Virus record (IMG/VR): IMGVR_UViG_3300031813_000003
Coordinates: 1-64,000 of that record
Length of the DNA stretch: 64,000 nt
From: a virus
Lineage: Duplodnaviria; Caudoviricetes
Strand: one strand, 5' to 3'
Positions 2,469 to 48,037 of the stretch are shown here, piece after piece. The translations under genes and the position numbers were made by a program. The first letter of the stretch is position 1. Every line of letters starts with the position of its first letter. Under the pieces are notes generated by a model that worked only from the letters and a program-made list of their open reading frames with translations, was not told the origin of the DNA and did not search any database.

Positions 2469-2875
2469 TGAAAGAACTTAGAATTGGTATCGTGGGTTCA
2501 CGTAGAAGGAACTCTGAAGACGATTTGAAAATACTTGCGGATTTCTTATCAAAAATATTGACATTTTATTCAGATGAGTATAAGGTAGTTCTTGTATCAG
2601 GGGGATGTAAGAAAGGTGGAGATTACTTTGCTGAAATTTTGAATAGGGCATGGCAACTTCCTCCAATGATCATTCACTATCCTGATAAAAGTAAATTACC
2701 GAATAATCCTCAGAGATATGATTTTGCCAAGATAAACTTTGCAAGGAACACTCTGATTGCTAGAGATTCAGATATATTGATTGCCCTTGTTGCGGAAGAT
2801 AGAACAGGAGGAAGTGAAGATACCGTTAAAAAGTTTAAAAAACTTCACCCTAAAGGAAAACTATATCTCATATGA
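2468..2875 (+). CDS. SLOG/DprA-like nucleotide-binding protein
   Basis: IGIVGSR, VSGGC..GGD, ARNTLIARDSD.LIA, GGSEDT motifs. Confidence 0.75.
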   Translation: MKELRIGIVGSRRRNSEDDLKILADFLSKILTFYSDEYKVVLVSGGCKKGGDYFAEILNRAWQLPPMIIHYPDKSKLPNNPQRYDFAKINFARNTLIARDSDILIALVAEDRTGGSEDTVKKFKKLHPKGKLYLI

Positions 2876-3063
2876 TAGATTTAAATGAATATATTTTTAT
2901 CCAATGCCCTAAATGCACAAAGTTGGATATCATCGATAGGATAAAAGATGACCCCTATGATGCAGTTACAGTTGGAATTATTTGCCCTAACTGTGATGAT
3001 GGGGATTTTCATGAACCAGTTTATTACAACAATGATGGGGAGGTAATCAATGCGGAAGGTTGA
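2872..3063 (+). CDS. Small zinc-ribbon protein
   Basis: CPKC...CPNC. Confidence 0.6.
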   Translation: MIDLNEYIFIQCPKCTKLDIIDRIKDDPYDAVTVGIICPNCDDGDFHEPVYYNNDGEVINAEG

Positions 3064-3231
3064 AGAAGTTCTACAAAATCTCTGGAAGAAACTTGAAATT
3101 CGTCCTACCAATAAAGATGGTAAAAAGGATAGTAACTTCAACTATGTTCATCAACTTTATGTTTCTGAAGCAGTGGTTGTCCTTGATAATCATTACCAGG
3201 AGATACTTGTTGGTGAGGAGGAACATTTCTA

Positions 3232-3582
3232 ATGAGTAGCTATAAAATAATTAAATCTGGAGTCACCCAAGAGGGTGATGAGGTATATCGTATATACCAG
3301 AATAAAATGGAATGGGTTAAATTATTATCATCTGATCATAACAAACAGATTATTGCGGATTGCTTTGAATTTCGCAGACCATCTAAACTCACTTCAGATT
3401 TTATTCTAGATATCATCAATACCCTTCGTAGGGAGTATAAACTTTATGAAGTATTGGAATTTTTTGAAACTGCTACCTTTAATGATTATGATGACAGGAT
3501 AGAAGTTGTTTATGATAATGGAGTGATAGACTTGTTTTACAAGATGCCCTCCATTACTCTTGTTCATGAATCAGACTGCTAA
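3232..3582 (+). CDS. Hypothetical protein
   Basis: ORF coupled within the early operon. Confidence 0.65.
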   Translation: MSSYKIIKSGVTQEGDEVYRIYQNKMEWVKLLSSDHNKQIIADCFEFRRPSKLTSDFILDIINTLRREYKLYEVLEFFETATFNDYDDRIEVVYDNGVIDLFYKMPSITLVHESDC

Positions 3583-3599
3583 TACAAAGGAGATTTACC

Positions 3600-3944
3600 A
3601 TGAGAATCTGGCTTGATGATATTCGTCCTATGCCTAACTGGTTTGATGTTCATTGCAAGACTGCAACTGAAGCAGCTGATTACATCAGAACTGGTAAAGT
3701 TACCTTCATCAGTTTTGATCATGATCTAGGCCCTGCGAAAGCTGGTACTGGATACCATGTTGCTGTTCTGATTGAAGACTATGCAAAGGCTGGAGCAATT
3801 CCAGCAATCAGATATGCAATTCACTCTGCTAACCCTGTTGGCAGGGTCAACATCGAAGCAGCAATGCGCAATGCAATCAAATTCTGGACTGAAGATGGTT
3901 TCCTTTCGAAGTATATGGGAAATGGTAAACTAATTAAACTATAG
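3600..3944 (+). CDS. Cyclic-phosphate-processing receiver-domain protein
   Basis: IWLDDIR, ISFDHDLG, TGY, IHSANPVG signature. Confidence 0.85.
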   Translation: MRIWLDDIRPMPNWFDVHCKTATEAADYIRTGKVTFISFDHDLGPAKAGTGYHVAVLIEDYAKAGAIPAIRYAIHSANPVGRVNIEAAMRNAIKFWTEDGFLSKYMGNGKLIKL

Positions 3945-3952
3945 AGGGTGAA

Positions 3953-4276
3953 GTGAGTATTACTGAAAATGAGTTAAAAGAATTAATGTTCAATCAAATG
4001 ATGAGAACTAGAAATGAAGTTGCAAATTTTTGTGCTAATATTTGTGATACTAATAGAGGTTATCTATCTTTGGGAGATTCTATTAGGAAACAATTCTCAA
4101 TTGCCCCTAAAGTAGTTGATGATACGGTTGTGTTCAGCACAACTCCTTCAGGGGCAAATCCTTTTTATGAAGTATATAAAGCATCTAAACCAACATTTAC
4201 TTTTATTAAAGGTAAAGGAAATAAGAATAATAGTATAGAAAGACCAATATTAACTTTAGTAAGGGGAAATAAATGA
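3953..4276 (+). CDS. Hypothetical protein
   Basis: GAGG RBS, GTG start. Confidence 0.6.
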   Translation: MSITENELKELMFNQMMRTRNEVANFCANICDTNRGYLSLGDSIRKQFSIAPKVVDDTVVFSTTPSGANPFYEVYKASKPTFTFIKGKGNKNNSIERPILTLVRGNK

Positions 4277-4485
4277 TTATTATAACTATGCTTATTGGAT
4301 TTGGTGCTTTGGTATCAATTACCACTTTTTTAGGAGTGTGTGGGTTTCTATGGGACACTTACAAAGATAAGTTTCAGGATATCATCTACGTCCTTTGCGG
4401 GTTAATCTCTTTGGTATTCTGCGGGATAGGGCTATACGCAATCGGAGATTTTGTGATTTCGGTTTACAATGGTCTTCATTTATGA
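4273..4485 (+). CDS. Small two-TM membrane protein
   Basis: Two hydrophobic segments. Confidence 0.6.
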   Translation: MIIITMLIGFGALVSITTFLGVCGFLWDTYKDKFQDIIYVLCGLISLVFCGIGLYAIGDFVISVYNGLHL

Positions 4486-4580
4486 GCATTTTGACTTCAA
4501 TGTTAGCTGCTGATATGATTCATGCATTTTGTACCCAAGGGGATATCACCTGTGTAATTTCTATTTTGTCTAGTTTTTAA

Positions 4581-4641
4581 TTGACAGATAAATGATCTTC
4601 TGGTAGATTAGATTTATATTCTACTACAAAGGAGATTTAAC
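4581..4641 (+). promoter_or_regulatory. Early sigma70 promoter plus RBS
   Basis: TTGACA 4581, 17 bp, TAGATT; ACAAAGGAGATTT. Confidence 0.8.
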
Positions 4642-5166
4642 GTGATCTGTTACGATATCAAATTTGAGGAAGATTTTCACCGTACCGTTAAAACTGATTG
4701 GAATACTAATGGTATTTTCGATCCTGAATTCATGAACAAGAAAATGAAATACTGCTCCAAAGATACAATCTTTGGTCATGGGTGGGGTCAGCCTAACCGT
4801 CATTTCATCTATGCATATGAAGGTACTAAAATAGTAGGTGTTCTGAAGATCAAAATTAAAGGTGAAGACTCTTGCGGAAATCCTGGATTCTGTAATTGGG
4901 TTGACTACATCACTGTAGACCCTGATTACAAAAATAAGGGTATCGCAACAACTCTAATCAAGATGATGTTCGAATATCTTAAAGAGAAAGGTGAAACTCA
5001 TATGCTTGCTTCTGGTTATAGCACGTTTGGATTTCATTTTCTTCGTAACAAGTTGAATACACTTGCGAAAGAGTATTCGATTAATTTCAAAGACGAAGAT
5101 ACCATAGGGTTTCCTGATAGAGATCAGGAAAAGGTTATCGAAGAACTTTTCGGCAAAGCTGCATAA
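4642..5166 (+). CDS. GNAT acetyltransferase
   Basis: ITVDPDYKNKGIATTL acetyl-CoA-binding motif A. Confidence 0.8.
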   Translation: MICYDIKFEEDFHRTVKTDWNTNGIFDPEFMNKKMKYCSKDTIFGHGWGQPNRHFIYAYEGTKIVGVLKIKIKGEDSCGNPGFCNWVDYITVDPDYKNKGIATTLIKMMFEYLKEKGETHMLASGYSTFGFHFLRNKLNTLAKEYSINFKDEDTIGFPDRDQEKVIEELFGKAA

Positions 5167-5171
5167 TTAAA

Positions 5172-5243
5172 TTGACATATAAATGATCTTCTGGTAAATT
5201 GAATTTACGAATTACGAAATCAAACCACAAAGGAGATTACAAC
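5172..5243 (+). promoter_or_regulatory. Early sigma70 promoter plus RBS
   Basis: TTGACA 5172, 17 bp, TAAATT; spacer nearly identical to the 4581 promoter; AAATCAAACCACAAAGGAG. Confidence 0.8.
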
Positions 5244-5594
5244 ATGAAAAAATTCCACGTAGTATACAACATGAGAAGCAATCGTTTCTTTGCCCCTACC
5301 ATCATTTCTGTAAAAGAATTCCTCAACTCTGATGATTTTATTTCGGTTGGGAGTGTGACTGCAAATTCTCTAGATGAAGTTTATCACATCCTGAACTACG
5401 TCACTGAAACTCCTACGGATGAAGCAGCTGAAGTTGCTGCTTATGTTCATAAGTTAGCAGAGTCTGATCCCTTCCACACCACTTATCCTTCTCTTCATAC
5501 TTCCATGTCCTGTGGAGATATTCTTGTGGAGTATTCTCCTGAAGGTAAAGTATACCATATGTGTGATTCCTGCGGTTGGGTGGTAATGAAATGA
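5244..5594 (+). CDS. YodL-like domain protein
   Basis: LDEVY..LN ... SMSCGDILV ... CDSCGW; start taken from the RBS. Confidence 0.6.
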   Translation: MKKFHVVYNMRSNRFFAPTIISVKEFLNSDDFISVGSVTANSLDEVYHILNYVTETPTDEAAEVAAYVHKLAESDPFHTTYPSLHTSMSCGDILVEYSPEGKVYHMCDSCGWVVMK

Positions 5595-5730
5595 GAAAGA
5601 CTTTAGTGTGGGTAGGATTCGGACCTTTCGCCCTCTTCTGGATCATGAAGATGATGGGAAGTGTTGATTGGTCTGGTTGGTGGTGTTTGTTGTTCATTCC
5701 AATGTGTTATATTAAAAGGAGACAGTAGTA

Positions 5731-5910
5731 AATGGACAAGTATACTTATCAGGAAGCTGTACAGAAAGCGTATAACCACGGTGAAGTAAGACACCCGTTT
5801 CAGAGGGTGCAGAATGCCCTTAAGGAGCAGTTTGGTAATGACTTGATGCCCCCTGAAGGGTATGATGGGGAAACCATCTTTGATGCCTATATGATGGGGT
5901 ATTACAAATA
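5731..5910 (+). CDS. Hypothetical 59-aa protein (not in ORF track)
   Basis: AAGGAG RBS; MDKYTYQEAVQKAYNHG... Confidence 0.55.
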
Positions 5911-5932
5911 AATTTGGTTCAAAAGATAATAA

Positions 5933-6637
5933 ATGAATTATATTAACCTACATGCACATTCCACACACTCTGATGGGAGAAACACTCTAGAGGAACATGT
6001 GTTTGCCCAAAAAAAACTAGGGATGACTGTATGTGTACTAACAGATCATGTCTACCCTGAAGGATATCAATTCTCCCTCAACACTTCAAAATTTTTGAAA
6101 CAAGTGGAAGAAGCTGAACGGTTGATGGATTCTCTAGGGGTTCCTATCATCCTTGGTATTGAATGCTCTGTCATGAGAATGGAAGAAGTCAATATATTTG
6201 GCAGGGATGCTATTTTAGAAATTCTTAAAATTAAATCAAAAGGCATGATTACCTATGATGATCTAGTTGCCCTCAAGAACAACTACAACTGTATCATCAA
6301 TTATAATCATCCTATGAACCCTCCTAGATTCGTTAAAGCAGGGTGTATGGATTTTATTGATGGGTATGAACATATCCATCAATGCTCATATACATTCGAT
6401 GAGGATTCACCAAATGTTAAACAGTTCACTTGTCCTCCTGAGTTTGCTTCCCTAGTGAAGCTGTGTAATTCTGATGCACATCATGTCGATGCCCTTGAAT
6501 GGTGTTTCAATGAGACTGAGACTCCAATCACAACTGAAGATGAATTAATCTCTTACATTAAAGAACGTAAACCAATGAAGCATATTGTTTGGGGAAAGAA
6601 GGAAACACTTAGTGCTGGTGGAATTATTTTACCATAA
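5933..6637 (+). CDS. PHP-domain phosphoesterase
   Basis: NLHAHSTHSDG, TDH, GIE, NHP, NSDAH. Confidence 0.85.
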   Translation: MNYINLHAHSTHSDGRNTLEEHVFAQKKLGMTVCVLTDHVYPEGYQFSLNTSKFLKQVEEAERLMDSLGVPIILGIECSVMRMEEVNIFGRDAILEILKIKSKGMITYDDLVALKNNYNCIINYNHPMNPPRFVKAGCMDFIDGYEHIHQCSYTFDEDSPNVKQFTCPPEFASLVKLCNSDAHHVDALEWCFNETETPITTEDELISYIKERKPMKHIVWGKKETLSAGGIILP

Positions 6638-6646
6638 TTTTTTAAT

Positions 6647-6675
6647 TTGACTTTAAATCTTTTCTCCTGTATAGT
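6647..6675 (+). promoter_or_regulatory. sigma70 promoter of the ligase N-terminal half
   Basis: TTGACT, 17 bp, TATAGT. Confidence 0.75.
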
Positions 6676-6706
6676 TATTTTACACCACATAACAAAGGAA
6701 TCATAA

Positions 6707-7759
6707 ATGAACGTATTGAAAGATCAAATCAAAAAAGCCAATGATGCCTACCGTGTAGGTAGCCCTATCATGTCTGATGCAGAATATGATATTTTGCTTT
6801 CTAAACTGGAAGACAAAATGGGCTTTATTGAATTTGAAGATTTCAAACAGACCCTTACTGAATCCAACGGAACAATCAAACTGGATTACGTCCTTGGTTC
6901 CCTCACCAAATTCAAATACGAAGAAGCTGACCTTCTCTACAAATGGATTGCTAAAATGAAGATCAAATCCATTTTTGCTTCCTTGAAGATCGATGGTTGC
7001 TCCTTTAATGCCTCTTGGAGGAAAGGAATTCTTACTATGTGTTCCTCCAGAGGGGATGGCGATTCTGGTACTGATTGGACTGCTAAAGCAATGTACATTC
7101 TCCCTACCACAATTCCATATCTGGATGATCTGGATATCAGGGGAGAGTTCACCCTCTGTGACGATTCACATATTGAACTTGGATATAAGAACCGGAGAAA
7201 CGGTACTGTTGGTATCATGAACAAAGATATCATCGAACCTGATAAGCTTAAACATGTGAAAGCAATCTGCTATGAGGTTCTCTCTGGTGAAATGAACATC
7301 TATGAACAGTTCAGGTTTCTTCACAAAGAAGGGTTTATCACTCCCCCTAGGGCAATCTATGATAATCCTGTTGACCTGTATGTTATCCATGAAATCCTGA
7401 AAGAATTCTATTTGGATAGAAAGAAAAAAGCACCTTACGATATCGATGGTATCGTGATCTCTTCTCCGCACTATAAGAGGGAGAATGTATTCTTCCCTGA
7501 AGGAAAAGTAGCATTCAAGATCAATTCTGAAGGTATATGGACTACTGTTATTGGTATTGAGTGGAATATTTCAAAAGGGGGTCTACTTAAACCCACGATT
7601 CTTCTTAAACCGATTGAATTTGGTGGATCAACTGTTCAAAGAGTTACTGGTAACAATGCAAAGTATATTCTTGATAACGGAATTAAGAATGGAACTAAAG
7701 TGTCAGTTATTTTGAGTGGAGAAGTAATTCCAAAAATAGTAAATATAATCAACACTTAG
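6707..7759 (+). CDS. ligA: NAD-dependent DNA ligase, N-terminal half (Ia, adenylation and OB domains)
   Basis: MSDAEYD, KIDG active-site Lys, SRGDG, RGE, YDIDGIV, AFK, SGEVIP motif VI then stop. Confidence 0.92.
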   Translation: MNVLKDQIKKANDAYRVGSPIMSDAEYDILLSKLEDKMGFIEFEDFKQTLTESNGTIKLDYVLGSLTKFKYEEADLLYKWIAKMKIKSIFASLKIDGCSFNASWRKGILTMCSSRGDGDSGTDWTAKAMYILPTTIPYLDDLDIRGEFTLCDDSHIELGYKNRRNGTVGIMNKDIIEPDKLKHVKAICYEVLSGEMNIYEQFRFLHKEGFITPPRAIYDNPVDLYVIHEILKEFYLDRKKKAPYDIDGIVISSPHYKRENVFFPEGKVAFKINSEGIWTTVIGIEWNISKGGLLKPTILLKPIEFGGSTVQRVTGNNAKYILDNGIKNGTKVSVILSGEVIPKIVNIINT

Positions 7760-8412
7760 CAATTCCTCTAGCTATAAACTTACATTTAAATCTTTTATGA
7801 TGGTTTCTATCACCAGATGCAACACTACTCATTTTTGATTGTTGTAACTTATGGTCTTTACAAAATTTATTTAATCCTATTATGATTTCAATATGTCCGT
7901 CAGGAAATGTTATTTCGTATGTTGATTTTTGCTTTTGGTCACCTATGCTCTTAGCTTTGATCCACTCTGGATTTTTAGCTAATAGTTCAATTGCATCTTG
8001 GTGTTTCTGTTTCACTTCTGGTCTTTTCATGACATTGTTGTCACCACAGAAAGATTTCATTGCTGTTTTTAAACTTTCGTCATGTCTTCTTTTTATATTG
8101 GGGTCAGACATTGGATGAAAATCACCACCTTTAGTTAAATTATATCCTTTACCAGAACTAACGTGGCAATCATATTCAACTATAAATTCAATTTCTTTTT
8201 CATCAAGTTCTTCTTTAGAAGAACAATAGCATTCAACTTCCCATATAAAGGAATCCCAACCATATTTTCGTATTGCTTTATGAAAATATGATTTTGATTG
8301 AGTTGTCAAGGCAGCATATTTGTGTGCTGTTTTTTCTCATATGTAATGTATTTTTACTTTGTCCAATATAAATTTTATTGTTAATTATATTAGTAGCTTT
8401 ATATATTATCAT
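7749..8412 (-). mobile_element. Free-standing GIY-YIG homing endonuclease gene, antisense within the ligase locus; frameshift at 8330-8335
   Basis: MIIYKATN..NKIYIGQS, then in another frame FHKAIRKYG..F..E..LDEKE..GYNLTKGG; frames join by removing one base from the A6 run; AAGGA RBS. Confidence 0.85.
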
Positions 8413-19583: not shown

Positions 19584-19934
19584 ATGATAATGTCATTCAA
19601 AACATTTTTAAAAGAAGGACAATCTTTAACTGAAATCAATCAGAAGTTAGATAGATACACATCTGGTGCGGCTGAAGAATATGACAACACAGGGGCATTT
19701 GAAGGTTTGTTTGATCCTAATGGAGAAGGGTTGCCAAAGATTCTATCTCAGTTTGGATATGATATTATTGGTCCTGATGGTGATATATTCAAAGGTAAAG
19801 GTGTTGTCATCTCCCCTACTATGTCTTTTAAATTAGCCAGGACAAACGAATTTAATCCAGTTAATACTTTAACTGTTGAAATTTCTAAAGTTACTAATGG
19901 CGATTATATTATTAAATCTGCGAAGGTATCCTAA
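19584..19934 (+). CDS. Putative internal head protein
   Basis: MSFKTFLKE tag. Confidence 0.65.
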   Translation: MIMSFKTFLKEGQSLTEINQKLDRYTSGAAEEYDNTGAFEGLFDPNGEGLPKILSQFGYDIIGPDGDIFKGKGVVISPTMSFKLARTNEFNPVNTLTVEISKVTNGDYIIKSAKVS

Positions 19935-19935
19935 C

Positions 19936-20748
19936 ATGAAACTATTATCATTCACTCAATTTTTAAATGAAATGCCTTTACCAATTGGAACTGATCCTAA
20001 ATCTCTTGATCCTAAGCCTGGAAAGTATACATTTGCAGGCACTGGAAAAATATTTAAAGAACTAGGAACACAAATCGGAAAAGGTTCTTCAAGAATTGCA
20101 TTCAAAGTAGAGGTAGAAGCTTCACAATTCAACCCTAACATTCTAAAAAAATATGGTCTTCCTGCTTCTGGTAAAGTAACTACCGTATTCAAATTAGCTA
20201 TAAATTCAAAAGGTGTTACACAAAATGCATCTGAAATTCAACACCATAAAAATGTCGGTGATAATCCTTTCCTATTACCTATACTAGATACAAGTCAATG
20301 GAATAAAGGTATTACATTTGATAATGAAGAATTATCAAACTGGATTCAAATGCCACTAGCTCCCCCTCCTTCACAAAAACAATTCAAACAATTTTGGTAT
20401 AAGATGTTTGGTAATACATTAGACTATGTAAAATATGCACACGATATTCAAATTCTTAGGAATCTAGATAATAAAGGTGTATTCGATACTGAAGAACAAA
20501 TGGAAAGATTTGAAGATTTCCTTAATCTATGTGAAGAATTAGGGTTAGGTATTGCTGATCTAGTTCGCCCTGCCAATTGGGGTGTTTGGAACAACAAAAT
20601 GTATGTAATAGACTATGGATTTGATAGTAATACTTCTAGTCTATATTCTTGGGGTGCTGCTGCACAAACTGCTCATGCTTATGTAGATAGTAATGGTAAT
20701 CTTTCCTTAGAATATAGAAAGAAACAATCACCCTCACTAAATTGGTAA
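19936..20748 (+). CDS. Protein-kinase-fold enzyme with capsid-targeting-like tag
   Basis: IGKGSSRIAF Gly loop, VFKLA, QNASE, ADL..ANWG, VIDYGF; MKLLSFTQFLNE. Confidence 0.75.
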   Translation: MKLLSFTQFLNEMPLPIGTDPKSLDPKPGKYTFAGTGKIFKELGTQIGKGSSRIAFKVEVEASQFNPNILKKYGLPASGKVTTVFKLAINSKGVTQNASEIQHHKNVGDNPFLLPILDTSQWNKGITFDNEELSNWIQMPLAPPPSQKQFKQFWYKMFGNTLDYVKYAHDIQILRNLDNKGVFDTEEQMERFEDFLNLCEELGLGIADLVRPANWGVWNNKMYVIDYGFDSNTSSLYSWGAAAQTAHAYVDSNGNLSLEYRKKQSPSLNW

Positions 20749-20750
20749 TT

Positions 20751-21401
20751 ATGAAATTAAAATCATTTAGACAACATTTAATAGAAATGGCAGCAGCTAG
20801 GGCTGAAGATCATGGTAAGAAATACTATCATGGATTTCCTTCAGAGAAGTCACTTCAGAGTATTAAAGATACTGGATTACAACCACCAGACCTAGCAGGA
20901 AAGAAAGGTAACCTAACACCTGTAGCTGGTAAAGTATATTGTACACCTGATTTGAGATATGCAATCATATATTGTCTTGGTGCAGCAATGATAGGACAAA
21001 AAATGTCTGATATAGCTATTGGTAGTTTTGGTCAATATGGTTTCCTCGCTGTAATATATGGGAATCAAATGACCGATGTTCAACCTGATGAAGATAGTGT
21101 TGGTGAAATGATTTATGATAGAAAATTTCCTTGGTTGAATAGATTAGCAGATCAATATATTGCAGCTAGTAGTATTAGAAGAATTATGGATGGAGAATAT
21201 AGTTATTGGGCCAAAGCAGGAAAGACATTAATGAAGCGAATGACTGATGCACAGAAACATGAACTCATTGATGCAGGAGCGCATGTTGCTCACGGCGGAG
21301 CATTACAACCAGATGAAATTTGGAAGTTTGATAAGAAACGTAGTCAAGAACTAGAAAAAGATGGATCAAACTTTTTTGATATTGCAGAGAGGATAAAATA
21401 A
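20751..21401 (+). CDS. Putative ADP-ribosyltransferase (H-Y type) with capsid-targeting-like tag
   Basis: YYHG....LQSI...GLQP...VYCTPD..YA; MKLKSFRQHLIE. Confidence 0.6.
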   Translation: MKLKSFRQHLIEMAAARAEDHGKKYYHGFPSEKSLQSIKDTGLQPPDLAGKKGNLTPVAGKVYCTPDLRYAIIYCLGAAMIGQKMSDIAIGSFGQYGFLAVIYGNQMTDVQPDEDSVGEMIYDRKFPWLNRLADQYIAASSIRRIMDGEYSYWAKAGKTLMKRMTDAQKHELIDAGAHVAHGGALQPDEIWKFDKKRSQELEKDGSNFFDIAERIK

Positions 21402-21403
21402 GT

Positions 21404-21499
21404 ATGAAATTAAAATCATTTAGACAAATGTTATCGGAACTTTATCCTGATAATAAAGAATATCAAAAAGCAATTAAGGATTATACAAATGAAGCTTAA
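21404..21499 (+). CDS. 31-aa tag-bearing micro-ORF (not in track)
   Basis: MKLKSFRQMLSELYPDNKEYQKAIKDYTNEA; first 24 nt identical to the start of 20751; GAGGA RBS. Confidence 0.6.
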   Translation: MKLKSFRQMLSELYPDNKEYQKAIKDYTNEA

Positions 21500-22157
21500 A
21501 TCATTCAAACGATTTCTAACAGAAGAAGATGATAAGAATGCAATCAATGCTTTCATTGAAAATACCTTCCAGGGTAATTGGAATAAAACTAAAGCTGATT
21601 TCGGAAACTTTATTGAAAAATATTCTTGTAAAGATGGAAGACCTCTATACAGAATTATATTTTTACTAAAATCAGAAGTTGCACAGTTAACAAGACTATC
21701 TGATTTAAAACAAAAGATAGCAGGAATTCTAACAACAGAGAATCAAGGGCATCCTAGATTTTATACTAAAGCAGATTATCATGATATCCCTGATCAATTA
21801 TCATTCTTAGCTAGTATAGGAGAAAAGATTCATGGGTATACTGATGATAACTCTGAAACATCTTTTATGGGTGTAATCATTTCCAAAGATTCAAATGCAG
21901 ATGATAATGTAGATTTCTCTAATTATGATAAATCAGGTAATAAACAAATACTAGATAGAATTGAAAGAACACAACCAGTACTTTCTGTTAACTCTGAAAC
22001 TGTTAAGATTGTGGCAGGGTTCGAATTTGAACAAAATGGTGGTTGGCAATTGAATGATTTAAATAAAGACCTTGAGGACAATATTGGCAATACACCGGCA
22101 GAAGAACCTGAAGCAGAAACTTCTAATCCTGAAGATCAAGAACAGGTACAAAAATGA
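21489..22157 (+). CDS. Putative internal head protein, possibly ART-like fold
   Basis: MKLKSFKRFLTEE tag; LYRII motif; acidic tail. Confidence 0.55.
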   Translation: MKLKSFKRFLTEEDDKNAINAFIENTFQGNWNKTKADFGNFIEKYSCKDGRPLYRIIFLLKSEVAQLTRLSDLKQKIAGILTTENQGHPRFYTKADYHDIPDQLSFLASIGEKIHGYTDDNSETSFMGVIISKDSNADDNVDFSNYDKSGNKQILDRIERTQPVLSVNSETVKIVAGFEFEQNGGWQLNDLNKDLEDNIGNTPAEEPEAETSNPEDQEQVQK

Positions 22158-30464: not shown

Positions 30465-31154
30465 ATGGAATCAAACATATTAATTGAAGAAGTAGATTTT
30501 TCTTCAATTGAAACACACATCATCGAAGAGGAAAGCCTAGAAGAAGGTAAAGCTCCTACTAGAAGTATCTACATCACAGGGCCAATGGTTGTGGCGGAAG
30601 CTATGAATGGAAATAAGAGGATTTATCCACGCCCTGTAATTGAAGGTCAAGTTAACAAATACCAAGATATTATCAAAGATAGAAGGTCTGTTGGTGAATG
30701 TGAGCATCCTACTTCTTCTTCAATTAATATGGAACGTATCTCTCATCTTGTAACAGAACTAAAGATGGATGGTAATGTTGCTATTGGTAAAGCTAAAGTT
30801 CTTGAAAAAATGCCTTTAGGTAATGTTCTAAAGAACCTTATTGAATCTGGTGTTAAGGTTGGTGTTAGTACTAGGGGAACAGGTTCTCTTAAAAATGGTA
30901 TAGTACAGAATGATTATAATATGATTTGTATTGATACTGTATTTAATCCTAGTGGCCCTGGATGTTTTATGCAATCTATTACTGAAGGGAAAGAATGGAT
31001 TCTTGAAAATGGAGTTCTTACTGAACAGGAAATTAAAGCAGTAAAAGAAGAAATGGATGAGATAGTAATAGTTAATCCTTTTTCAATTCAAGATAGGCAA
31101 GCGGCATTTATGAAGTTATTTCAAGATACTTTAACTAAAATATCTAAGAGATAA
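30465..31154 (+). CDS. gp21: Prohead protease
   Basis: NGNKRIYP, GECEHP, ISH, GKAKVL, GVSTRGTGS, D.V.NPS. Confidence 0.95.
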   Translation: MESNILIEEVDFSSIETHIIEEESLEEGKAPTRSIYITGPMVVAEAMNGNKRIYPRPVIEGQVNKYQDIIKDRRSVGECEHPTSSSINMERISHLVTELKMDGNVAIGKAKVLEKMPLGNVLKNLIESGVKVGVSTRGTGSLKNGIVQNDYNMICIDTVFNPSGPGCFMQSITEGKEWILENGVLTEQEIKAVKEEMDEIVIVNPFSIQDRQAAFMKLFQDTLTKISKR

Positions 31155-42736: not shown

Positions 42737-43720
42737 TTGATTTCTTACTCAAAAACAGAACTACTTAACATTTTAGAAGCACACGAAAAGATAAACGGAA
42801 CCTTACCAACAAGAAGAGTACTAAGAAAATCTGGTCTGTCTGAAGGACCATTTATAAGAGTATTCGGAAGCTTTAGTGCAGCAAAAGAGTATTATAACCA
42901 AAGCAAACTAAGTGTTCAGCTTGATGATATCTGGATTAAAAAATCAGACATAGTTCAATTCTATCCTACCACTCTTGTCATACCTGATGCCCACGTATCT
43001 CCTGATCAAGATAACTCCAGATTTGTCATACTAAATAAACTAATTCTGGATAGAAAGCCTGATTATATCATCTTCATGGGTGACTTCGTTACCTTGGAAA
43101 GTCTGTCTAATTGGGACTTGAATAAAGCTGGTGTAATGGAAGGACGTAGATATCAAATGGATATCGAAGCAGGGCAACAAGCTCTGGAACTTACATTAAA
43201 AAATGTTAAACAAACTTATAGTCCTACTATCATCTACCTCCACGGTAATCATGAGACAAGGCTAGATCGTTATGTTGAAAGTAAACCAGAACTGAAAGAT
43301 CATCTTGACCTTAACAAAGATTTAAACCTGAAAGGTTATGGCGTTGATGTTATTGTGCAGTATCGTGAATACTACACCATTGAAGGAACACAGTTTACCC
43401 ACTCACCTATGAATGCAGCAAACCAAGCACTGTCTGGAAAGTTTGCAATTCATAGAGCATCAGAAATGACACAGAACAGTTTAGTATTTGCCCACTCACA
43501 TAGAAAAGAATATGTTAACTTCTATCGTCATGGGTCTGATGATATCGTTCAGGTTATGATGTGTGGGGCTTTCTTCGAACATACTGACTCCTACGCACAC
43601 GGCGGGCTTAATGCCTACTGGAGGGGCTGTATGCTCCTTAATCACTGGAAAAAAGGAAGGTTCGATGCTGAAGAATTCTCCCTTGAGAGGATGAAACAAA
43701 TATATGGATTATCATTATAA
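42737..43720 (+). CDS. Calcineurin-like metallophosphoesterase with N-terminal HTH-like domain
   Basis: IPDAH, MGDF, GNHE, AHSH; FGSFSAA. Confidence 0.85.
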   Translation: MISYSKTELLNILEAHEKINGTLPTRRVLRKSGLSEGPFIRVFGSFSAAKEYYNQSKLSVQLDDIWIKKSDIVQFYPTTLVIPDAHVSPDQDNSRFVILNKLILDRKPDYIIFMGDFVTLESLSNWDLNKAGVMEGRRYQMDIEAGQQALELTLKNVKQTYSPTIIYLHGNHETRLDRYVESKPELKDHLDLNKDLNLKGYGVDVIVQYREYYTIEGTQFTHSPMNAANQALSGKFAIHRASEMTQNSLVFAHSHRKEYVNFYRHGSDDIVQVMMCGAFFEHTDSYAHGGLNAYWRGCMLLNHWKKGRFDAEEFSLERMKQIYGLSL

Positions 43721-43998: not shown

Positions 43999-44048
43999 AA
44001 AGAGGGTAATCATTCAATTGGTTACCCTCTTTTCGTTTCATATAAATA
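43999..44048 (+). terminator. Terminator plus late promoter TATAAATA (44041)
   Basis: AAAGAGGGTAA...TTACCCTCTTTT. Confidence 0.75.
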
Positions 44049-44075: not shown

Positions 44076-44375
44076 ATGAATCTATTAACATTTTTCAAAA
44101 AGTATGGTGTATTGCTTGCTAGTTGTGGTCTTGGGTTGTTCTTCGTTCCTGATATTGAAACACTCCAAGTGACTCTATTTAGATTTGGTATTATTTCAGC
44201 AATTATGCTTCTTTGGTTGAATATCATTGGTCTAAATAAAGATACTGGTATATTTCCAGATGTTGATCTAAAAGAACTTTTTGACAAAGCTTGTGAATCT
44301 GGTATAGGGGCTGGAATTGCACTATTCGGATTATTAATTATGTTATCAACAATAATTTTCTGTATATCAAAGTAA
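44076..44375 (+). CDS. Putative holin
   Basis: Three TM segments, FPDVDL.EL..KA...IGAG; upstream of endolysin. Confidence 0.6.
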   Translation: MNLLTFFKKYGVLLASCGLGLFFVPDIETLQVTLFRFGIISAIMLLWLNIIGLNKDTGIFPDVDLKELFDKACESGIGAGIALFGLLIMLSTIIFCISK

Positions 44376-44377
44376 GT

Positions 44378-45016
44378 ATGAAAATTTTAGTAATATTGAT
44401 CTTACTATTACTAATCCCATTTTCTGTTCCTGGGGATGATATGTTAGTACGATCCAAACCTTACATAGTTATTCTAAAATCAATTTTCAATCAATATTGG
44501 CCTAATGTAGATTGTAAGTATATAGCAGCTGGTCAGGTTGAACAGGAGTCTGATTGGAATCCCAAAGCACATCTTCATACTAAGAGAGAAGATGGTTATG
44601 GGTTGACACAGATAACAGTTACTCCTAGGTTCAATAACTTCAAAAATGCTGTTGATCTAAAACCACTGAAGTCATGGCACTGGAAGAATGATAAGTATAA
44701 TCCAACATATCAATTGACTTTTCTTGTCCTAGAAGACCGATCAAATTTCAATATGGTAGGGCATCTTCTGAAAGGTGATGCAGAGATATGGAAAGGTGTT
44801 CTTGTATCATATAACGCAGGATATGGAAGGCTGGAACGTAGGCATCAATACGCAGTTGCAAAAGGATTACCTCATGACTGCTGGACAGGTGGATTAGAAC
44901 TAGCACATGGAAGAACTGAAGATACAAAACTTTATGGGGAAACTCTCTGGAAGACAGTGAATGCTTACCCTGTATTAATATTCAAGAAAGCTGAAAAATA
45001 CAAAGGTGAATTATGA
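44378..45016 (+). CDS. Lytic transglycosylase (SLT) endolysin with signal sequence
   Basis: GQVEQES.WNP.A, E.GYGL.QIT, SYNAG.G. Confidence 0.8.
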   Translation: MKILVILILLLLIPFSVPGDDMLVRSKPYIVILKSIFNQYWPNVDCKYIAAGQVEQESDWNPKAHLHTKREDGYGLTQITVTPRFNNFKNAVDLKPLKSWHWKNDKYNPTYQLTFLVLEDRSNFNMVGHLLKGDAEIWKGVLVSYNAGYGRLERRHQYAVAKGLPHDCWTGGLELAHGRTEDTKLYGETLWKTVNAYPVLIFKKAEKYKGEL

Positions 45017-45369
45017 GATACATGTCATTCAATCAATATCTAACAGAAATGTCAACACATATTGGAGATGTTGAATTTAGATTCTCTAATCACTTTTCTG
45101 ATAGGGTGAAAGAACGCTCAGTCATTACCCCTGATGATTTGAATACTTTATTAGCTAATATTAGAAAGAAGTTAACTGATCTACCGGCTGTTGGTGAATT
45201 CCTTTTCTATTCTAAGAGACTTGCCCAAGGGGTTATTGCAGCATGGGACTCATTTAGAAATCGAATAAGTCTCATTACTTTCCTGCCAAAAAATAAACAT
45301 TTCGCAAAGCCTGGGACTGAAACTGTGGTTCTTGAATCTATTACATATCAAATAATCTATATAGACTAA
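45013..45369 (+). CDS. Putative RelE/Barnase-fold RNase with capsid-targeting-like tag
   Basis: MSFNQYLTE; FS.HF.DRV.ER ... LIT. Confidence 0.45.
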   Translation: MRYMSFNQYLTEMSTHIGDVEFRFSNHFSDRVKERSVITPDDLNTLLANIRKKLTDLPAVGEFLFYSKRLAQGVIAAWDSFRNRISLITFLPKNKHFAKPGTETVVLESITYQIIYID

Positions 45370-45377
45370 GGACTCCA

Positions 45378-45923
45378 ATGTTATCCTTTAAACAGTTTAT
45401 AACTGAAGATGCTGATGTAGATACTCAACTCAAAAAACTAGGGCTTAGAAGGGGTGGTATGGGGTTTCCAGTGGGTAAAGTGATTGGTGGTTGTGTGTAC
45501 CTTCACAAACAATATGAGAATGAACTTCCACAAGATTTCTTAGCCAATGCCAAATCAAAACTCCCTAAAGGATTTCACTACGACACATTGAAGTTCGATC
45601 CTAAATCAAAGTCAATCACATTCTTCAGGGTAGATGATTTCGATACTAATCATGAACCAATCATTGATGAATATGTTACTGTTAAGCCTAATTCTGACGG
45701 TGTTAAAGTTGTTACTGATGGAAACACAGTTTATCACCATAAATGGCAATGGGTAGGCCCTGACTATAAAGGGTTTGATGTTGAGAAGAACAAAGCTAGA
45801 AGTGCAAAATGGTATGGGTTGACGGATGCTGATATCGGCCAGGAGAAATATAAATGTAAGATTGGTAAGAATAGTTTCTGGCAACAGCATGTTGTTGATA
45901 AATTTCTAAAGGATGATGAATGA
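45378..45923 (+). CDS. Tag-bearing protein resembling the non-MTase domain of phosphorothioation-associated methyltransferases (TIGR04096)
   Basis: MLSFKQFITE; GK.....YLH, TLKF.....ITF....DFD...EP, YHHK..V.PDY. Confidence 0.55.
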   Translation: MLSFKQFITEDADVDTQLKKLGLRRGGMGFPVGKVIGGCVYLHKQYENELPQDFLANAKSKLPKGFHYDTLKFDPKSKSITFFRVDDFDTNHEPIIDEYVTVKPNSDGVKVVTDGNTVYHHKWQWVGPDYKGFDVEKNKARSAKWYGLTDADIGQEKYKCKIGKNSFWQQHVVDKFLKDDE

Positions 45924-46600
45924 AACTAAAATCATTTACACAATTCATAACTGAGGCTATAACATCACCTACTGACAACCCAAAATTCACAAAATGGTTT
46001 GGTAGTTCTAAAGTTGTAGATGATCAGGGCAATCCATTGGTTGTATATCATGGGACTGCTAAAGAGTTTACTGCTTTTATGTCAGATGATAATCAGAAAA
46101 CTTTTGGTTCTAGATATAGTGGAATGAAAGGATCATTCTTTACAAGTCGCCCAGGTGAAGCAAATCACTATGCAGAACAATCAAGAATCTGGAAAGGTGG
46201 AAATGAACAAGTTCTCCCTGTGTTTCTTAAAATAGAAAATCCTTATATCAGAAAAGGTGGTAAATTCCCAACTCAATGGTTTGATAGTAATTGGGAAGAT
46301 ATTCAAAGAAAGTGTGAATCAAGAGGATATGATGGAATTATTATAACAGGCGGAACTCCTGAGATACCTAGGACTATTTACATCACATTTGAACCTATCC
46401 AAGTGAAATCTGCTATTGGTAATAATGGAAACTTTGATCCATCTAATCCACATATTACCGAAGATAAAAAGATAAATACTATTAATGAATCTTCTAACGA
46501 TTGTAAATATTTTCGTAAAGATACAGAAACCTGTTCTATCAAGAAAAACAAGACATGTAAATATATAGATGACCAAGGAGATTGTAAAGACTATGAGTAA
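45920..46600 (+). CDS. ADP-ribosyltransferase of polyvalent-protein type, with tag
   Basis: MKLKSFTQFITE; F.KWFG.SKVVD..G.PLVVYHGT, FFT, VLPVFLKIENP, GYDGII, QVKSA.GN.G.F. Confidence 0.75.
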   Translation: MKLKSFTQFITEAITSPTDNPKFTKWFGSSKVVDDQGNPLVVYHGTAKEFTAFMSDDNQKTFGSRYSGMKGSFFTSRPGEANHYAEQSRIWKGGNEQVLPVFLKIENPYIRKGGKFPTQWFDSNWEDIQRKCESRGYDGIIITGGTPEIPRTIYITFEPIQVKSAIGNNGNFDPSNPHITEDKKINTINESSNDCKYFRKDTETCSIKKNKTCKYIDDQGDCKDYE

Positions 46601-47135
46601 GTTTGAAAAATATCTATTAAGTGAAATGGCAACTCCAGATGAACAAGCAATTGCCCAAGCAACTTCAAGAAATACAGGTGCAGTTGGAGCCAAAGCTATT
46701 GTTCCTAGGATGGTAAGACAATATGCAAATAAGAATAAAGATGTAATCCTAGACTTTGGTGCAGGAAAAGCAGCTGCACATACATTGGCTCTTAGAGAAG
46801 AAGGATATAATGTTACAGCATATGACTTTTCACAATCAGAGTTTCATGATCCTACTGCGTTGAATAAGAAATACACTCTAGTATTTGCTTCTAATGTACT
46901 AAACGTCCAAGGGTCAGAAGATATGCTTATGAATGATACTTTAAGACCTATATATAAGGTTCTTCGTCCAGGTGGTAGATTCATTGGTAATCTTCCTTCT
47001 AGCCCTCTTAAAGGTATGTATAAGGGTCTTACTTATAAAGAGTGTGTTGCTCTATTACAGAGTAAACTTGAAGAAGTATTCTCAAGTGTAAAGAGATTAG
47101 AAGGATCAACTCCTGTATGGATGTGTATCAAATGA
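46593..47135 (+). CDS. Class I SAM methyltransferase (TIGR04096 MTase-like), with tag
   Basis: MSKFEKYLLSE; ILDFGAGK, TAYD, SNVLNV, LRPGG; AAGGAG RBS. Confidence 0.75.
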   Translation: MSKFEKYLLSEMATPDEQAIAQATSRNTGAVGAKAIVPRMVRQYANKNKDVILDFGAGKAAAHTLALREEGYNVTAYDFSQSEFHDPTALNKKYTLVFASNVLNVQGSEDMLMNDTLRPIYKVLRPGGRFIGNLPSSPLKGMYKGLTYKECVALLQSKLEEVFSSVKRLEGSTPVWMCIK

Positions 47136-47279
47136 GATGCCCAACATGTGGATATAAGAAAACTTCAGTTAGAATGTCTCCTGGGTTCACTCATTTAGTA
47201 ATAGAAGAATGCCCTGATTGTGATACTGTGTATATGATGGATAAAAACATAACAAAAATTTTATTTCAAAGGGATGATC

Positions 47280-47540
47280 ATGACAAATATTCTAAACACA
47301 ATTGAAAAACTATCAGAAGCATATGAAACTTTTGATATTGAAGTTAATGGGAAACTGAAACAGGGTGTTCATAAGAACTATCTTAAAGTTCTAGATGAAA
47401 AAGGTGTTAAATATAAAATTATACCTAAAGATGCCTCTATTCCCAAATCAAAAACTCAACCAGTATCTTCAAAAACTTGGAAATGTAGACGTTGCGGTAA
47501 AATGGTTTCTGATAAAAATCCATGTAGATGTTATGATTAG
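47280..47540 (+). CDS. Small protein with C-terminal Zn knuckle, possible head protein
   Basis: LSE near N-terminus; WKCRRCG...PC.C. Confidence 0.55.
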   Translation: MTNILNTIEKLSEAYETFDIEVNGKLKQGVHKNYLKVLDEKGVKYKIIPKDASIPKSKTQPVSSKTWKCRRCGKMVSDKNPCRCYD

Positions 47541-47851: not shown

Positions 47852-48037
47852 ATGGCATACACTGAATATCTAACAAAATACAAAACTAAAAGAACTGAGG
47901 TTAATGTTTTTTTGTCAGGAAAGAATACAATGTTAACAGGCAAGATATCAGATTTTGATGATACTTGCATTATACTAGATGAATGTTTAATTTTTAGAAT
48001 AAATATAATTTCTATTACACCACAAAAGAAAAGCTAA
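47852..48037 (+). CDS. Hfq/Sm-like protein
   Basis: YL......TEVNVFL....LTGKISDFD..CIIL...LIFR.NI.SITP matches Sm1/Sm2 spacing; GGAG RBS. Confidence 0.7.
   Translation: MAYTEYLTKYKTKRTEVNVFLSGKNTMLTGKISDFDDTCIILDECLIFRINIISITPQKKS

Follow-up and report, generated by a model that had tools for sequence, protein, structure and literature searches.

A split, leader-tagged acc-methyltransferase module predicted among the cargo genes of a T4-like virus

Do two small open reading frames (ORFs), which lie 670 nucleotides (nt) apart in the genome of a T4-like virus with an ADP-ribosyltransferase (ART) gene between them, encode one enzyme in two parts? The question concerns positions 45378 to 47135 of a 64-kb stretch of DNA (positions 1 to 64,000 of the virus record IMGVR_UViG_3300031813_000003, hereafter the window), which is the first part of a complete 216-kb record, has about 33% G+C and carries T4-like structural genes. 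An initial annotation had read the two ORFs as the halves of a methyltransferase of family TIGR04096, injected by the phage in a split version. Our comparisons indicate that the locus encodes, in split and leader-tagged form, a widespread module that joins a class I S-adenosylmethionine (SAM)-dependent methyltransferase to a conserved basic domain, here named acc. We consider it probable that the two ORFs each encode one half of a conserved enzyme made of two parts and that both products are packaged, injected and cooperate in the cell. The genes of this run are listed below.

45013..45369, plus strand: leader-tagged protein of 118 amino acids (aa), or 115 aa when started at the ATG at 45022; opens the tagged run
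45378..45923, plus strand: acc protein, 181 aa, made of a 10-aa capsid-targeting-like leader and the acc domain (residues ~17-180)
45378..45407, plus strand: leader of the acc protein, 10 codons with I-T-E at the end, resembling the T4 capsid targeting sequence (leader scan)
45920..46600, plus strand: ADP-ribosyltransferase (ART-PolyVal), 226 aa, with the same kind of leader (PF18760, E-value 2.2e-26)
46593..47135, plus strand: class I SAM-dependent methyltransferase, 180 aa, with an 11-aa leader that has L-S-E at its end; an alternative ATG lies upstream at 46569

Both ORFs are present on the plus strand as first annotated, and their products contain all six motifs quoted at that time, two of them with a spacer one residue longer than given. 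The acc protein has GK..YLH from residue 33 with a spacer of 6 residues (quoted as 5), TLKF..ITF..DFD from residue 70 with a first spacer of 6 residues (also quoted as 5), and YHHK-x3-V-x-PDY from residue 119. The methyltransferase, numbered from the ATG at 46593, has LDFGAGK at residue 53, AYD at residue 76 and NVLNV at residue 101. These motifs are far above chance because they correspond to invariant columns of two large families. The start at 46593 is preferred over the ATG at 46569, since homologues begin at the same leader and AAGGAG is located 13 nt upstream.

The acc protein has no match to Pfam even at E ≤ 10. It falls into PHROG 16075, a family of unknown function, and its sole NCBIfam match is to positions 322-440 of TIGR04096 (E-value 1.3e-3). 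We built an acc profile (A2) from 16 domains and searched it among 1.84 billion representatives, with clusters defined at 50% identity. This search returned 1230 clusters at E ≤ 1e-3, 910 of which remain at E ≤ 1e-10, and the matches span stand-alone, two-domain and giant proteins of up to 5587 aa. Residues Y41, H43, Y46, D87, F88, E93, P94, H120, H121 and W123 are invariant in the family alignments, and D89 and K122 are nearly so. The window protein retains every invariant column and is thus a canonical acc (H/DFD/EP/HHKW). The domains are basic, with a median isoelectric point of 9.0 (165 domains), and are much better conserved than their methyltransferase partners. An AlphaFold2 model of acc was obtained with high scores (pLDDT 91.8, pTM 0.85). 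No structural match was found when it was compared with solved folds, a sequence search of the PDB was also empty, and matches in a viral structure library were limited to a homologous segment. The predicted acc fold thus appears to be new, having no detectable solved counterpart.

One indication that the two ORFs belong together comes from domain architecture. A methyltransferase is located directly beside acc in 70 of the 165 acc proteins, following it in 37 and preceding it in 33. The linker has a median length of 34 aa and does not exceed 65 aa in 62 of these 70 proteins, and the adjacency holds even within polyvalent proteins of 2000-5500 aa. When only multi-domain acc proteins are considered, the immediately adjacent domain is a methyltransferase in 65% (70/108). 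Among mid-size acc proteins (n=60), 22 match Methyltransf_23 and 40 match TIGR04096. The subtype of methyltransferase found in the window is itself among the fused ones: phmmer comparison with acc-fused methyltransferase segments gave E-values from 5.8e-39 to 6e-28 (P0055, P0076, P0051, P0044, P0036, P0096, P0132 and P0161). These fusion proteins had been collected through their acc domain alone.

Individual proteins and loci illustrate the same association. Leader, acc and methyltransferase are found in one chain of 359 aa (P0020), and a polyvalent-type protein of 1391 aa carries the methyltransferase and then acc (P0021). A T4-like 191-kb contig (L008) encodes acc followed by the methyltransferase with a 4-nt overlap, both tagged, and in a phage of a non-T4 type (L015) the acc gene lies immediately upstream of the methyltransferase gene, both untagged. 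In the closest relative (L007; 71% and 70% identity), the two genes are separated by three other tagged cassettes, and a related 147-kb contig has the order acc-ART-x-methyltransferase, as in the window. Altogether, four other phage contigs have the two genes side by side or within one array, and each gene is also found alone. The scan of contigs with the acc profile, which used two very strict peptide patterns and yielded 3 loci, is not a census. By several independent lines of sequence comparison, the two ORFs appear to be parts of one recurrent module, seen as fusions in both orders and as adjacent genes in other phages and bacteria, and to this extent the notion of a split version is supported.

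The ART gene between the two is real, as initially noted; the proposal that it was inserted into a gene and split it was rejected. It is one of several interchangeable tagged cassettes, and L007 carries other tagged genes at this place. One of them (L007 2610-3032) encodes a tagged 140-aa protein, the N-terminal region of which looks ASCH/PUA-like, by eye only.

The second half of the module is a class I methyltransferase. It matches Pfam Methyltransf_23 with 29.2 bits (cut-off 27), and its AlphaFold2 model has the Rossmann methyltransferase fold (pLDDT 87) and a disordered leader. Structural neighbours are small-molecule, protein and tRNA methyltransferases, and a sequence search of the PDB gave generic methyltransferases only. 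Alignment of the window protein with 30 relatives revealed invariant features specific to the family, namely a T-S-R..GAVG..VP stretch before the fold, a SNVLNVQ stretch and N-x-P-x-x-P.

How are these proteins related to TIGR04096? This model (dnd_rel_methyl, ‘DNA phosphorothioation-associated putative methyltransferase’) represents an uncharacterised bacterial family with a curated cut-off of 150 bits. The acc protein reaches 17.6 bits, and the methyltransferase has no match to the model even at E ≤ 10. A six-frame search of the whole genome found one place, at 15.7 bits. Because the cut-off is not reached, the window proteins are homologues of parts of TIGR04096 and not members of the family; the membership of either ORF suggested in the initial annotation does not hold, while the distant homology of the acc protein to the C-terminal region does. 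Relatives of acc are placed likewise (E-value 9.3e-3 for F86 and 1.9e-9 for P0020), always within positions 320-470. The acc profile matches the C-terminal region of genuine members, and hhalign comparison gave an E-value of 3e-4. For the methyltransferase, hhalign comparison of the window family with four genuine members gave a probability of 62% and an E-value of 7.5e-5 over the SAM-binding motifs, and the direct profile gave an E-value of 1.5e-3 only. A joint profile of acc-linked methyltransferases scores both kinds, having been trained on both. The window enzyme thus appears to be a different methyltransferase subtype from that of TIGR04096.

At the domain level, TIGR04096 resembles the window pair in the GxG, acidic and (N/Y)V(L/I)NV motifs of its N-terminal class I methyltransferase and in its C-terminal 320-470 region, which is a distant acc homologue. 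It differs in being a single polypeptide of ~480 aa with a helical middle of ~170 aa, and no counterpart of model positions ~155-320 is present in the phage proteins. It also differs in being bacterial and lacking a packaging leader. The C-terminal domain of TIGR04096 is a divergent acc-like domain, in which the H-K, DFD and P positions are kept and HHKW is lost. Genuine members can carry a canonical acc in addition: in P0048 (568 bits) and P0159 (452 bits) it is fused N-terminally to the full match, and two Planctomycetota genomes encode canonical acc as a stand-alone gene that adjoins a genuine TIGR04096 gene, either 2 nt downstream (L005) or divergently (L004). Such an extra canonical acc, fused or adjacent, was found at 5 of 7 complete TIGR04096 loci from Planctomycetota genomes and metagenome contigs; the family itself occurs in 6 of the 401 Planctomycetota genomes sampled. 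On sequence grounds, the nearer counterpart of the phage acc protein is the canonical acc partner of TIGR04096 and not the family’s own C-terminal domain.

At the loci seen, TIGR04096 adjoins a gene for a cysteine desulfurase, for a PP-loop protein or for large ATPases. In L005 (5617-8320), TIGR04096-acc lies beside an IscS/DndA-like cysteine desulfurase (E-value 1e-92; 3e-72 for DndA) and a PP-loop protein similar to ‘PptA’, crystallised with IscS (PDB 21fy), and a YprA-like helicase is encoded near it. The same type of cysteine desulfurase adjoins a genuine TIGR04096 gene in L017 (2287-2841), a contig unrelated to L005. In L004, TIGR04096 and acc are located beside a gene (2705-7945) for a protein of 1746 aa, the C-terminal part of which is an FtsK/HerA-type translocase ATPase (E-value 1.5e-34 to FtsK). 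An identification of this protein as DndH could not be established, as dnd_assoc_2 did not match it, but that model matched no control genome. Taken together, the desulfurase, PP-loop, FtsK-like and helicase neighbours suggest sulfur-modification or defence-island contexts. Searches of the two Planctomycetota genomes with genuine TIGR04096 found DndC, DndD and dnd_restrict_1 nowhere above cut-off; dnd_assoc_1 and dnd_assoc_2 were not found either, a result that is uninformative, since no control genome matched these models. There is no DndC-like gene in the phage genome.

The remaining part of the question is whether the two proteins are delivered. Each of the four consecutive ORFs between 45013 and 47135 opens with a leader of about 10 aa that resembles the capsid targeting sequence of T4 and has (L/I)-x-E at its end. 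The leader has the form F-x-Q-(F/Y)-(I/L)-x-E, and that of the methyltransferase reads F-x-x-Y-L-L-x-E. A genome-wide scan found such leaders clustered at three loci only, and they are retained by homologues across many T4-like contigs, with differing cargo. The gp21 protease of T4 prefers sites of the type (L/I)-x-E. In T4, the capsid targeting sequence (CTS) routes internal proteins, and also foreign cargo, to the head and undergoes one cleavage (PMC3012670); both the sequence and its single cleavage have been described (PMC8442874). A protease of the gp21 type is encoded in the window:

30543..30992, plus strand: gp21-type prohead protease (Peptidase_S77; PF03420, 82.8 bits against a cut-off of 27), the predicted leader-removing enzyme

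Since four ORFs carry leaders and a gp21-type protease is encoded, packaging and injection of both proteins, as claimed in the initial annotation, are likely, and we infer them from these genes.

Tagged genes are also found elsewhere in the genome. A second run of four ORFs with the same kind of leader (114, 270, 216 and 222 aa) is located at 19584-22157 on the plus strand, and a single tagged 184-aa ORF is located at 105741-105187 of the genome on the minus strand. With these, there seem to be about nine tagged cargo proteins at three loci. In two related contigs (L011 7807-8571 and L012 4113-4877), a 254-aa protein is encoded in the same array, one to three genes downstream of acc, with a leader nearly the same as that of the methyltransferase and an unrelated body, which suggests that cargo is exchanged by recombination at the leader sequence.

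In the mechanism that we favour, a small class I SAM methyltransferase and an obligatory-looking basic companion, acc, would be the two halves of the enzyme. Both would be built into the prohead core through their own leaders, which the gp21-type protease would trim after (L/I)-x-E. Both would then be ejected into the cell with the DNA, alongside the ART and the 118-aa protein, and the separate parts would cooperate there as they presumably do in the fusions. The acc domain may recognise a conserved substrate, probably nucleic-acid or nucleotide-like, to which the Rossmann domain would transfer a methyl group. Such action would precede any phage gene expression and would most likely be an early counter-defence or take-over step. 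The conservation of acc, its basicity and its occasional joining to other group-transfer enzymes (GNAT and ART) fit recognition of an invariant ligand better than that of a fast-evolving host protein, and the bacterial gene neighbours described above agree with this.

Several observations weigh against a cooperating pair that acts on nucleic acid. Two related contigs (L011 and L012) have acc without the methyltransferase and with other C-terminal extensions instead, while two others (L013 and L014) have the methyltransferase and no acc within 8 kb. In KVP40 and F86, acc is fused to another domain, and only a weak distant methyltransferase match is found elsewhere in the genome. The similarity of acc to the window copy does not track that of the partner methyltransferases (Spearman rho -0.03). 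Neither catalytic motif of DNA methyltransferases, (D/N/S)PP(Y/F/W/H) or PCQ, occurs in the window protein or in any of the 31 family members. A DNA substrate has no direct support, because these motifs are absent and the structural neighbours are non-DNA enzymes, and a classical DNA base methyltransferase is unlikely. Finally, acc has invariant His, Asp and Glu residues, which would be compatible with an enzyme as well as with a binding domain. Prediction of a complex of the mature methyltransferase, SAM and acc scored 0.00 in two runs without controls, which counts neither for nor against binding.

Could the two proteins be injected effectors that act independently and have no more in common than a hypervariable locus of internal proteins, with acc being self-sufficient and the methyltransferase an interchangeable cargo with its own target? 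The separate occurrences and the lack of co-variation just described would agree with this, as would the intervening tagged genes, which differ between phages. Furthermore, acc is a stand-alone domain (≤215 aa) in 57 of the 165 proteins and is also joined to GNAT, ART-PolyVal, NlpC/P60, NFACT-R and YunG-like domains. This explanation has to contend with the adjacent methyltransferase in most multi-domain acc proteins, in both orders and with short linkers, with translationally coupled acc-methyltransferase pairs that recur in unrelated phages and bacteria, and with the fusion of the window’s own methyltransferase subtype to acc elsewhere. We regard it as rather unlikely.

Another explanation, which we find unlikely, takes acc to be a catalytic, probably metal-dependent enzyme, so that the pair would perform two successive steps on one substrate, for example cutting or activating it and then methylating it. 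It draws on the very strong conservation of acc compared with the methyltransferase, including H43, D87, E93, H120 and H121 (with D89 and K122 nearly invariant), and on a GK-x-IGG loop ahead of the invariant residues. The acc-like domain of TIGR04096 has lost HHKW, yet genuine members recruit a canonical acc, as expected if only the canonical copy were active. On the other side, no likeness to a known enzyme fold or family was found, and ligand-binding pockets also hold conserved polar residues.

More speculatively, and with little confidence, acc may be imagined as a reader of new fold, or as a metal-dependent enzyme, that guides a minimal SAM methyltransferase to a nucleic-acid backbone or thio-modified site, for example the sulfur of phosphorothioate DNA. 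Bacteria would use this activity in sulfur-modification and defence islands (TIGR04096 with acc); in phages and conjugative elements it would serve as a counter-defence that is loaded in advance and injected.

It is very improbable that the proteins are not packaged, with the N-terminal peptide being a leftover of cassette recombination or serving another use and the enzymes acting late on progeny DNA or virion components: the lack of enrichment of a late-promoter octamer (see below) and the leaderless pairs in other phages (L015) would suit this, but the leaders are closely similar to the T4 CTS, which is defined by experiment, and have a protease site at the end, homologues from many T4-like contigs share them despite varying cargo, the protease gene is present, and the same domains occur in polyvalent proteins, which passages of a survey describe as delivered early effectors (PMC5512222).

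The cassette is part of a tight run of genes on the plus strand, which begins as follows.

44041..44048, plus strand: TATAAATA, a T4 late-promoter-like octamer that heads the tight run containing the cassette
44076-44375, plus strand: ORF in the tight run
44378-45016, plus strand: SLT-like lysozyme, 212 aa, in the tight run

The octamer TATAAATA is weak evidence, because the window as a whole shows no enrichment of it (13 copies against 15 expected). The product of 44378-45016 combines a hydrophobic segment at its N-terminus with an SLT lytic transglycosylase domain (Pfam E-value 8e-5; PHROG 669 endolysin, E-value 1e-11), and the tagged cassette begins just 3' of its gene. The first tagged ORF, 45013..45369, has no significant family match in NCBIfam, Pfam and PHROG searches. 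Further upstream, 42737-43720 encodes a 327-aa metallophosphatase-like protein that is 74-76% identical to proteins encoded in L011 and L012 upstream of their cassette array; these counterparts match Pfam Metallophos, and the gene marks a conserved left border of the variable locus. The methyltransferase gene is followed by small ORFs of a zinc-ribbon-like type, an ORF resembling Hfq, and genes for tube and baseplate. A 62-aa CxxC..CxxC protein (47117-47305) directly follows the methyltransferase gene, overlapping its end, and is found at the same place in L007 with 38% identity. Right before the tube-protein genes lies a 61-aa ORF (47852-48037), counterparts of which in related contigs have a weak Pfam Hfq match. 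Comparison of the locus by blastn with 50,697 phage records gave no match.

Known systems share some of these properties. Similarly to the window array, the internal proteins of T4 (IPI, IPII, IPIII) and Alt have a CTS-like leader of ~10 aa with an (L/I)-x-E end, form a variable array and are encoded in a genome with a gp21-type protease (PMC3012670, PMC8442874). An ART is among the array members in both cases, as Alt is an ART (PMC3012670, PMC8442874). The window ART, however, is of the ART-PolyVal type and not of the Alt clade, packaging in our case is a prediction, and the described set of T4 internal proteins includes neither a methyltransferase nor an acc domain. Polyvalent proteins contain the acc-methyltransferase dyad, together with ART-PolyVal, inside giant chains of 1200-5600 aa, and have been described, in passages of the survey devoted to them, as delivered early-phase effectors (PMC5512222). 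The window, in contrast, encodes small separate proteins (118-226 aa), each leader-tagged, so that only domain content is shared. The passages of this survey that contain the terms searched mention no class I methyltransferase with such a companion domain (PMC5512222). The window enzyme also differs from P1 DarB and similar methylase-helicase dyads in not being an EcoKI/TaqI-like N6-adenine methyltransferase with NPP(Y/F). Likewise, the acc-methyltransferase dyad is not mentioned in those passages of a Dnd reappraisal that contain the terms searched, and our literature search found no paper that uses TIGR04096 or describes the function of the family.

The acc domain is also present in KVP40.0371 and its relatives from Schizotequatrovirus vibriophages (PHROG 16075), with 32-35% identity; the F86 copy also touches TIGR04096 positions 322-465. 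These proteins differ from the window pair in that acc is fused to another C-terminal domain (weak DUF6934 match) and has no linked methyltransferase. In L001 (3929-4891, KVP40.0371) and L002 (3929-4903), acc is the N-terminal half of a 320-aa protein. The KVP40-like acc gene is located in a run of small genes near inh, which encodes a prohead protease inhibitor.

T4-type internal proteins are the first molecules of the phage in the cell. To our knowledge, few of them have a known activity, for example Alt as an ART and IPI as a restriction inhibitor. The pairing of acc with a methyltransferase links phage internal proteins, giant polyvalent effectors and an uncharacterised bacterial family annotated with phosphorothioation. 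The phage version is small and tractable and consists of two soluble proteins of ~19 kDa each; it could make the biochemical function of all three directly testable and could uncover a novel early modification that serves counter-defence or host take-over. If the backbone or thio-site reading were true, it would represent a so far unknown kind of nucleic-acid methylation.

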